Below, piece after piece: positions 3,001 through 4,098 of a stretch of DNA of 4,098 nt. The position numbers are program-made. The stretch's first letter is position 1. Each line of letters starts with the position of its first letter. This stretch comes from a virus. Its lineage: Duplodnaviria; Heunggongvirae; Uroviricota; Caudoviricetes. The stretch is from the IMG/VR virus record IMGVR_UViG_2778261347_000018. One strand, 5' to 3'.

Positions 3001-4098
3001 CAATTACACTCCAGGACCTTTCAGGTGAATGCCACGAATGAAGAGCTAACCGTTGAGTGTACGATGAATGCCGCTAAATGCCGCATGGTATCCGCTGCAT
3101 TACAGCCAGTGTGTTGAGCGACCTTATTATTCATGCGCGGTATTGTCGCCGTATTCCTGCATTAACAGAGACCGCAGCCCGACCGGGAGAATCCTCTGCG
3201 CGAGTGTGCGGGGATAATCAAAAACGATACACACCGGGGTTTACCGCGTTAACGGAGCGCGGCGTTGTCCCCTCATGGTCGCTGGTCCGGTGCGATGGTG
3301 GAAGAAGCCGGATGTTTATCACTATTAATTGATAACACAGAAATGGATTCATTGATTTTCAGCACGTTTTTGTATTCGTATTATTGAACATCTGTTTATT
3401 TTACTTTTAACATATTGATAATAAAAAGAGCTGTAAATCTTTAGATGAGTCGATTTTGTCCGGGGAAGTTCAAATGGATTTTATGCTGACGGTTTCTGGT
3501 GTGGTTATCCTGTCCATTGCTTATACTGCAGATAAATATGGCTGCCATTTGTTATCACGTATTGGCGCTTATTGCTCGTTGATGCTGATTTTCTCGTCGC
3601 TTTTTTTTGAGTAAGTTATATTAATTATAACAAATAATTTTCTGTGTTTTTTCAGGCTATCCCGTCAGACGGGAAGCCTGTACTGCCGGGGGACGAATGG
3701 AAAACTGATGTGTCCGGTAACTGTGTGTTCTGTGAACACCATGTTACTTAATTATGTAATTCATACCCGAACGCTCTGTTGACAGCCTTCTTCTGCAGGC
3801 TTCAATAACCCACGCTGAAAAGTTACCGGAACCTTTATGTTCAAGGGCGATATTGATCTGTTCAATCATGTGATTGGGGAAACGGATATTGCGGGTTGTG
3901 GTTCTGCGGGTCCGGTTTTTCGATGACATATTTATTTCCTTTACTGATTGCCATATGACGGGGATTTTACATGGCTGAGCTTCGTACACTCCAGAGCAGA
4001 ATCAAAACACTGAATACCCGACGGGTGAATATTCTGAAGGGTGAACAGCGTCGTGTCAGTGGCAGTGCACGTGTTTCCCTCAAGCGTCATATCTGGCT

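Follow-up and report, generated by a model that had tools for sequence, protein, structure and literature searches.

A conserved element at the distal end of the lambdoid lysis module that probably acts as a structured RNA

Why would a lambdoid prophage keep a stretch of GC-rich DNA with no convincing gene between its lysis and packaging modules? The question is raised by positions 3118–3330 of a 4,098-nucleotide (nt) stretch of the Caudoviricetes virus record IMGVR_UViG_2778261347_000018, which was analysed at its full length and is called the window here. A reading made from the sequence alone (the sequence-only reading) had described this interval as GC-rich, bounded by AT-rich DNA and non-coding, and had proposed a structured RNA, a decayed gene remnant or a recombination junction. 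The interval is GC-rich, with ~54–60% GC in 100-nt windows compared with mostly 40–55% across the window. AT-rich DNA borders it on the right (3301–3500, 24–33% GC) but not on the left, where positions 2951–3100, the end of a 74-amino-acid (aa) gene, have 47–49% GC. Within the interval lies a discrete conserved unit of ~180 nt, at 3134–3312 on the plus strand, which sits at the distal end of the lysis module, is non-coding and shows strand-specific covariation. We consider it likely that this element functions as a structured RNA formed by the plus strand.

The element is widespread in Escherichia genomes and their phages. In a BLASTN search with 3118–3330, a check that had been suggested for the interval, 4143 of 5426 complete E. 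coli genomes matched (at a median of 2 and a maximum of 11 places each), as did 398 phage records, including Shiga toxin (Stx) phages of the Stx1 and Stx2 types, phage 21, mEp460 and ev243, a pattern of widespread conservation rather than chance composition. Alignment of 77–78 distinct copies showed that similarity begins abruptly at ~3134 and stops at ~3312, with several unrelated flanks on each side, so that a conserved core is set between two mosaic flanks. A covariance model (R1) built from aligned copies of the element found precisely one copy in each of 98 loci and scored the window copy at 221 bits. It also placed a copy in phage lambda itself, at 46864–47042 between bor and lambdap78 (117 bits), and in the K-12 cryptic prophage DLP12 between borD and ybcV (123 bits), while the K-12 Qin prophage held no convincing copy (best match 10.9 bits). 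On ColV-type plasmids only the 5′ half, containing the 5′ domain described below, is kept next to the serum-resistance gene iss (88.6 bits), and this survival accounts for 691 plasmid matches in the BLASTN search. The plasmid remnant (L133:2991-3096 and L134:2991-3096) lies ~165 nt upstream of iss, is accompanied by Rz/Rz1 fragments and flanked by IS3-family elements, and is lambda-derived. When one genome per bacterial species was searched for an exact 27-nt core pattern, it was found in Escherichia and in three odd contigs or metagenome-assembled genomes, which are probably contamination.

Gene order around the element is constant on one side only. We surveyed 129 loci. An upstream neighbour was identified in 113 of them, and it invariably belonged to the lysis end, in the same orientation; in the remaining 16, none was identified or the locus ran off the contig. 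Where the neighbour is Rz, the i-spanin gene that ends the lysis cassette (2402–2869, plus strand, in the window), its stop codon lies 14–20 nt from the element in many loci. The 74-aa hypothetical gene, which in this prophage is inserted between Rz and the element (2893–3117, plus strand), lies 16–37 nt away as an upstream neighbour, and minus-strand bor has its start 116–183 nt away. Downstream, we found at least six unrelated alternatives on either strand, namely YbcV, YlcI/YnfO, a TonB-C protein, a 46-aa open reading frame (ORF), NohD/small terminase and the Stx2-II ORF C88. The lysis module is the sole constant partner, and the orientation of the element is locked to late transcription. 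The idea of a recombination junction holds to the extent that the element sits at a mosaic module boundary, but the element is itself a conserved unit and not a scar. The element does not behave as a miniature mobile repeat of the MITE or REP type, with exactly one copy per phage locus at a fixed map position and orientation.

The model of the fold takes its long hairpin and 3′ hairpin from RNAalifold, with a variable hairpin and a crossing second stem added by hand inspection; all parts lie on the plus strand. The 5′ domain (3140–3230), drawn from RNAalifold and pair counts, is an extended irregular hairpin and the most conserved part of the element. Its helix P1 (3140–3146/3224–3230, 7 bp) is separated from P2 (3152–3162/3206–3216, 11 bp) by a 5×7 internal loop with CGCCG on one side and AUCAAAA on the other. 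A P2 extension (3165–3166/3204–3205) follows, and then the apical helix P3 (3173–3177/3196–3200) and P3b (3178–3180/3185–3187). The variable hairpin region (3236–3272) consists of a P4 closing stem, GGGG at 3236–3239 with CCCC at 3269–3272, and P4 itself, CCGCG at 3244–3248 and CGCGG at 3258–3262 around a loop at 3249–3257. P4 is the hairpin that the sequence-only reading had picked out; the hairpin is real, but had been placed two bases too far right. Two crossing stems, each with covariation, form an H-type pseudoknot at 3278–3312, in which S1 (3278–3282/3292–3296) and S2 (3286–3290/3308–3312) have an invariant purine-rich loop, L3 (GGUGGAAGAAG, 3297–3307), between their 3′ strands. The loop segments AAUCAAAAAC, CACACC and GGUGGAAGAA are strongly conserved.

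The case for this structure comes from comparison between variants, not from thermodynamics. In the 5′ domain, 98.5–100% of alignment cells are paired, and each one-sided change is a G·U wobble; P2 shows a C-G to G-C swap in lambda and DLP12. Compensatory changes are concentrated in P4, where three pairs changed on both sides, with CCGCG/CGCGG replaced by CUGUG/CGCAG or CUCAU/AUGGG and a stem-extending insertion in one locus (L072). They also occur in the pseudoknot. S1 has three covarying pairs (GU:42, CG:15, UG:2, AU:1; UA:40, UG:11, CG:8; CG:54, AU:3), giving the variants GUCGC/GCGAU, CUCGC/GCGGG, GCCGC/GCGGU and GCCAG/CUGGC, and S2 has one (GC:40, UA:11, GU:8), with CCGG/CCGG becoming CCUG/CAGG. 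In a structure-blind MAFFT alignment, 97.7% of cells formed standard pairs, compared with 34–63% when the partners were slid, and nine pairs had changes on both sides, a value reached by none of 500 shuffles. The model-based alignment of 98 loci gave a similar result (97.8% of cells paired and 10 double-change pairs; 0 of 500 shuffles). By this comparative standard the element qualifies as a structured RNA, among closely related sequences. The minimum free energy (MFE) fold of the isolated 5′ domain also recovered P1 and P2 in four divergent variants (z = −0.95, −2.6, −2.1 and −2.45).

The pattern of change is specific to one strand, as the sequence-only reading's proposal of a structured RNA would have it. 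Plus-strand helices contained 359 G·U cells against 15 A·C cells, all eight transitions present in at least 10 variants were of the G·U type, and only 88% of cells paired when the same helices were read on the minus strand. The RNAalifold energy was −31.5 kcal/mol for the plus strand compared with −16.0 for the reverse complement, and the minus strand of the 5′ domain folded worse than shuffles (z = +0.93). An excess of G·U of this kind is an asymmetry that a double-stranded DNA site would not give; it is formally possible that the plus strand acts as single-stranded DNA. The plus strand is also the sense strand of the Q-dependent late mRNA. In lambda, late genes are expressed from PR′ as a single ~27-kb mRNA (PMC10695390). 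In records related to the window, terminase genes follow the HNH endonuclease gene that lies downstream of the element, which places the element between the lysis cassette and the packaging genes and therefore on the path of the late transcript.

Could conservation instead reflect a protein? The ORF at 3078–3332 that the sequence-only reading had noted is present, is 84 aa long and overlaps the upstream gene. Its translation has a sole match in PHROGs, to phrog_6954, ‘Rz-like spanin’ (E = 2e-13, residues 20–64), and ORFs are annotated over the element in Stx2 II, mEp460, ev243, PA2 and others. In a formal sense this match answers the suggested BLASTX search for a homologue, although it comes without a sign of coding selection. 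Public records leave the element unannotated or cover it with ‘hypothetical’ ORFs that differ in strand and frame. Across 65 distinct variants no frame stays open throughout; the best one, that of the 84-aa ORF, is open in 26. Codon periodicity is absent, with common variable sites split 9/8/7 over the three codon positions. Replacements are radical, such as R, L or P at one codon, and on reading the translation we found neither the signal peptide nor the lipobox that a spanin would need. The right half carries 1-nt indels, as well as 9- and 17-nt deletions that remove the terminal stem-loop or one pseudoknot strand; across the element, indels are confined to loops or terminal stems. The phrog_6954 match arises because the matched part is the indel-free 5′ domain, where nucleotide conservation alone suffices, and the family is most likely made up of ORF calls on the element. 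The ‘Rz-like spanin’ labels, which recur in the RefSeq records NC_028449 (PA2) and NC_049918 (ArgO145), are probably a propagated annotation error. ORFs of the window that overlap the element had no Pfam match. Among 5.8 billion proteins searched there was no intact homologue of greater length; the search yielded 51 small clusters (47–147 aa), all from Escherichia or Shigella, nearly all ‘hypothetical’ and without a Pfam domain except for two fused with Rz1. The most plausible reading of these clusters is that ORFs were called sporadically on a non-coding element. We regard a small protein, whether the 84-aa ORF or the ‘Rz-like spanin’ or ‘hypothetical protein’ family, as extremely improbable. 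Nor is a decayed gene remnant supported, since the clusters are few and heterogeneous, Pfam is silent, and the length stays at ~180 nt in very different gene contexts.

For the role of the element, we suggest an action in cis. The element would be transcribed, on the plus strand, only within the long Q-dependent late mRNA, and could act as a 3′-untranslated or intercistronic part of the lysis-gene mRNA, where it may direct processing, determine stability or bind a protein. One option is that an RNase III-type hairpin would separate the holin–endolysin–spanin segment from the head-gene message and protect the 3′ end of that segment. Phage RNase III sites, such as the T7 R1.1-type sites and those of the lambda N leader and sib, leave a 3′ hairpin that stabilizes the upstream message. 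A processing or stability role is proposed because P1, the internal loop and P2 together resemble these signals in size and in their irregular shape; with 7 bp, a 5×7 loop and 11 bp, the stack matches the geometry of an RNase III site, a coaxially stackable helix of roughly 20 bp with an internal loop. Both are extended, irregular, intercistronic hairpins with an asymmetric internal loop, found after a gene block in a long phage mRNA. The likeness is one of predicted geometry only, and the element differs in its sequence-conserved loops and in its extra hairpin and pseudoknot. Taken as a whole, the best explanation that we can offer is a so far undescribed structured RNA that acts in cis within the late mRNA, at the 3′ end of the lysis cassette, and we hold this explanation tentatively, as somewhat short of probable. 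The specific processing or stability role is a possibility that we would place on the unlikely side.

Several observations weigh against a structured RNA of this kind. The folding energy of the whole element is no better than that of shuffles (z = −0.18), the MFE fold predicted for the 3′ half is at odds with the covariation model, and S1 is lost by deletion in the lambda and phage 21 types. The sample is narrow, consisting of closely related Escherichia and Shigella phages that are 61–100% identical over the compared stretch, and the number of independent compensatory events is modest, at an estimated dozen or so, because many cells share ancestry. Conservation of AAUCAAAAAC, CACACC and GGUGGAAGAA exceeds what a plain exonuclease barrier or RNase III site needs; the invariant loops and the pseudoknot suggest specific protein recognition or a tertiary fold. 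Lastly, the HK630 record annotates a minus-strand promoter within the 5′ domain of the lambda-type copy. This promoter (TGGACA-N15-TACAAT; L140:819-845, equivalent to lambda 46882–46908) lies ~110 nt upstream of bor, which it presumably serves, and its hexamers are created by bases of the internal loop, of the junction leading to P3 and of one P3 pair, which is turned into A·C.

The promoter raises the alternative that the element works at the level of DNA, as the upstream regulatory and promoter region of the oppositely oriented moron genes bor and iss or as a conserved linker that is retained for homologous recombination between phage modules, with only a relic left in the window. The bor promoter region of lambda, as annotated in HK629 and HK630, covers the same DNA. 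In lambda, phage 21, ev243, DLP12 and Stx phages bor has the element upstream of it, plasmids carry the 5′ domain beside iss, and the element stands exactly at a mosaic junction. The hexamers are limited to the lambda type, however. On reading the alignments we found them absent from the window variant, which differs at the positions concerned and also lacks bor, and from the phage 21 and ev243 variants, and the scan found no sigma-70 −35/−10 hexamers with 16–18 nt spacing on the minus strand of 3118–3330. The full length of the element is kept in phages that lack bor and have Rz only 14–20 nt away. Neither the ratio of 359 G·U to 15 A·C cells nor the compensatory changes seen in four helices would come from a double-stranded site, indels in a neutral linker would not be restricted to loops, and the conservation pattern of the element is that of a plus-strand RNA. 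The lambda-type promoter supports use of the DNA in some lineages but cannot explain conservation of the whole block elsewhere; the same DNA may be used in two ways in some lineages. As a general account of the element, a DNA-level function appears distinctly unlikely to us.

If the element is an RNA, it does not resemble a known one by the searches made here. Scans for sigma-70-type promoters and intrinsic terminators found neither on either strand of 3118–3330, and no conserved U run follows the S2 hairpin. By eye, no sigma-E-like, extended −10 or boxA/boxB-like motif had convincing spacing or conservation. GGA motifs of the CsrA type occur in the window, but they are not conserved among P4 loop variants, and CsrA binding was set aside as a candidate. 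A covariance-model search had been proposed for the interval, and it returned nothing of note: the 4227 models of Rfam 15 gave 0 matches to the whole window at E ≤ 1, and at E ≤ 10 positions 3120–3330 gave only noise (mir-1421, 17.6 bits against a threshold of 45; ncS16, 12.8 against 48). Rfam models recovered AgvB (in Sakai prophages Sp9 and Sp10), STnc100 and tRNAs in control loci. Full-text literature searches for the invariant strings of the element returned unrelated matches only, and literature on borD, ybcV and small RNAs (sRNAs), the bor promoter and the lambda late transcript held nothing about the element. With no Rfam model, no consistent annotation and no literature match to the invariant strings, the RNA family appears to be undescribed, although objects of this kind, conserved structured RNA motifs of phage intergenic regions, are familiar.

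These results bear on two further alternatives, both of which accept an RNA. The element could be the source of a trans-acting sRNA, either excised from the late transcript or expressed from an unrecognised promoter in the lysogen. Its invariant single-stranded segments, AAUCAAAAAC and GGUGGAAGAA, would then base-pair with mRNAs of the host or phage. These unpaired segments resemble seed regions, the element is an autonomous module with mosaic flanks, and lambdoid prophages bear many sRNAs at conserved positions (PMC4104026; bioRxiv 10.64898/2026.05.13.724894). An Hfq-dependent sRNA gene was rejected as a candidate, since it needs its own promoter and a Rho-independent terminator with a U tail and neither is present in 3118–3330, and the lack of a sigma-70-like promoter or intrinsic terminator in or at the element and of an Rfam match counts against any such sRNA. 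The AsxR and AgvB anti-sRNAs (RF02703 and RF02702) and the STnc100 and Pas sRNAs are likewise non-coding and occupy fixed positions in the mosaic genomes of lambdoid and Stx prophages, but the element is none of these. The anti-sRNAs, which are 51–60 nt long, Hfq-bound and transcribed from start sites of their own, occupy the PR′ moron site, after Q and ahead of the holin gene (PMC4104026), whereas the element lies downstream of Rz, has no promoter that we could find and no listed Hfq peak, and does not match their models. Of the Pas sRNAs, PasB maps inside the structural-gene operon and PasA, PasC and PasD map close to the PR′ moron site, and the Pas and STnc100 models match control loci and not the element. 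Data on Hfq binding from crosslinking and analysis of cDNA (CRAC) in strain Sakai list no peak on the element. Strong Hfq-CRAC peaks near it (EcOnc10, EcOnc11 and EcOnc12 in Sp12, Sp10 and Sp9) were reported by Tree et al. 2014, and with current Sakai coordinates EcOnc11 and EcOnc12 appear to fall on its core, but AgvB used as an anchor revealed a genome-version offset of ~+134 nt. After correction, all three peaks fall outside the element, on a minus-strand terminator just beyond it, in a flank that the window lacks. We consider a trans-acting sRNA to have little probability, about as little as a DNA-level function. A riboswitch-like or ribozyme-like domain that controls or cuts the late transcript between the lysis and head genes is more improbable again. 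The multi-domain architecture of the element, its pseudoknot and its invariant loops would suit such a domain, as would mutually exclusive pairings (for example, CACCGG at 3232–3237 with CCGGUG at 3287–3292, in competition with S2), the departure of the 3′-half MFE fold from the covariation model, and the sense that cutting a 27-kb mRNA at this position would make. Against this, positions 3120–3330 matched no known riboswitch or ribozyme family even at E ≤ 10, neither a gene nor an expression platform is conserved on the downstream side, and the lambda and phage 21 types do without the pseudoknot.

The terminator at the EcOnc peaks is an observation in its own right. It is intrinsic, consists of CUGCUGUGACUCCAACACGGCAG followed by U7, abuts the 3′ edge of the element at L137:6946-6976 (Sakai Sp10) and recurs in Sp9 (L139) and Sp12 (L138). 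It lies downstream of the ynfO-like gene, and together with the EcOnc peaks it may mark a small RNA from the 3′ untranslated region of this DUF3950 gene.

A cis-acting RNA within a lambdoid transcript would have a precedent in the put RNAs of HK022, two stem-loops just downstream of the early promoters that act in cis to modify RNA polymerase. Both put and the element are structured RNAs inside a lambdoid transcript with no separate gene, though cis action of the element is a proposal; they differ in that the element is late in position and put is next to early promoters, and the comparison is one of description only. In late transcription, Q already makes the transcription complex resistant to termination. 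A bolder version of the cis-acting RNA is a new RNA domain in the lambdoid late transcript, with a defined tertiary fold, that would cleave itself or bind specifically to a small molecule or to a factor of the host or phage, and thereby set the balance or timing of lysis and virion genes. We think this unlikely, but such a domain would be a new class of phage riboregulator that goes beyond a stabilizing hairpin.

Lambda is the reference temperate phage, and to our knowledge its late operon is considered fully mapped. The presence of the element in lambda itself is moderately surprising. If this operon contains a conserved, structured, non-coding module, the lysis and late-gene programme would gain a regulatory part that had been missing. 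The same would hold for Shiga-toxin phages, which rely on this transcript for toxin release. The element occurs in about three quarters of complete E. coli genomes, at places that are now blank or inconsistently annotated. A covariance model would mend this annotation and provide a clean marker for the end of the lambdoid lysis module.

The window is part of a lambdoid prophage. Positions 3050–3400 are 100% identical to prophages of E. coli O157:H7, O26, O145 and O111, and phage PPyecE_EH1910 is 99.6% identical over 2800–3800. Downstream of the element, positions 3330–3740 form an AT-rich insertion (24–43% GC) between the element and a minus-strand YlcI/YnfO (DUF3950) gene at 3744–3929, which is followed by the HNH endonuclease gene (from 3961). 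This segment contains a plus-strand promoter-like site (3356–3384) and a hydrophobic 46-aa ORF (3474–3614), hypothetical in RefSeq and without a PHROG or Pfam match, and looks like a ‘moron’ insertion. Upstream of the element, the 74-aa gene at 2893–3117 has an AT-rich 5′ end (35% GC) and matches only positions 100–172 of the 291-column phrog_2571, and could represent a fragment, or one domain, of a larger protein family.

The genes annotated before Rz are a class II holin (260–475), YdfR (480–824), a lysozyme (875–1408), an antirepressor (1679–2248) and a 49-aa ORF (2245–2394). A 270-nt non-coding gap (1409–1678) separates the lysozyme gene from the antirepressor gene and contains a perfect tandem repeat of 11 nt at 1548–1569 (GCGCATCTCAC, twice), and this repeat may serve the antirepressor gene as an operator or as a regulatory site of another type. 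The lysozyme gene is intact in the window, whereas in the otherwise identical prophage copy of O157:H7 PV15-279 it is interrupted by IS1203, an IS3-family element (L001:1027-2240).

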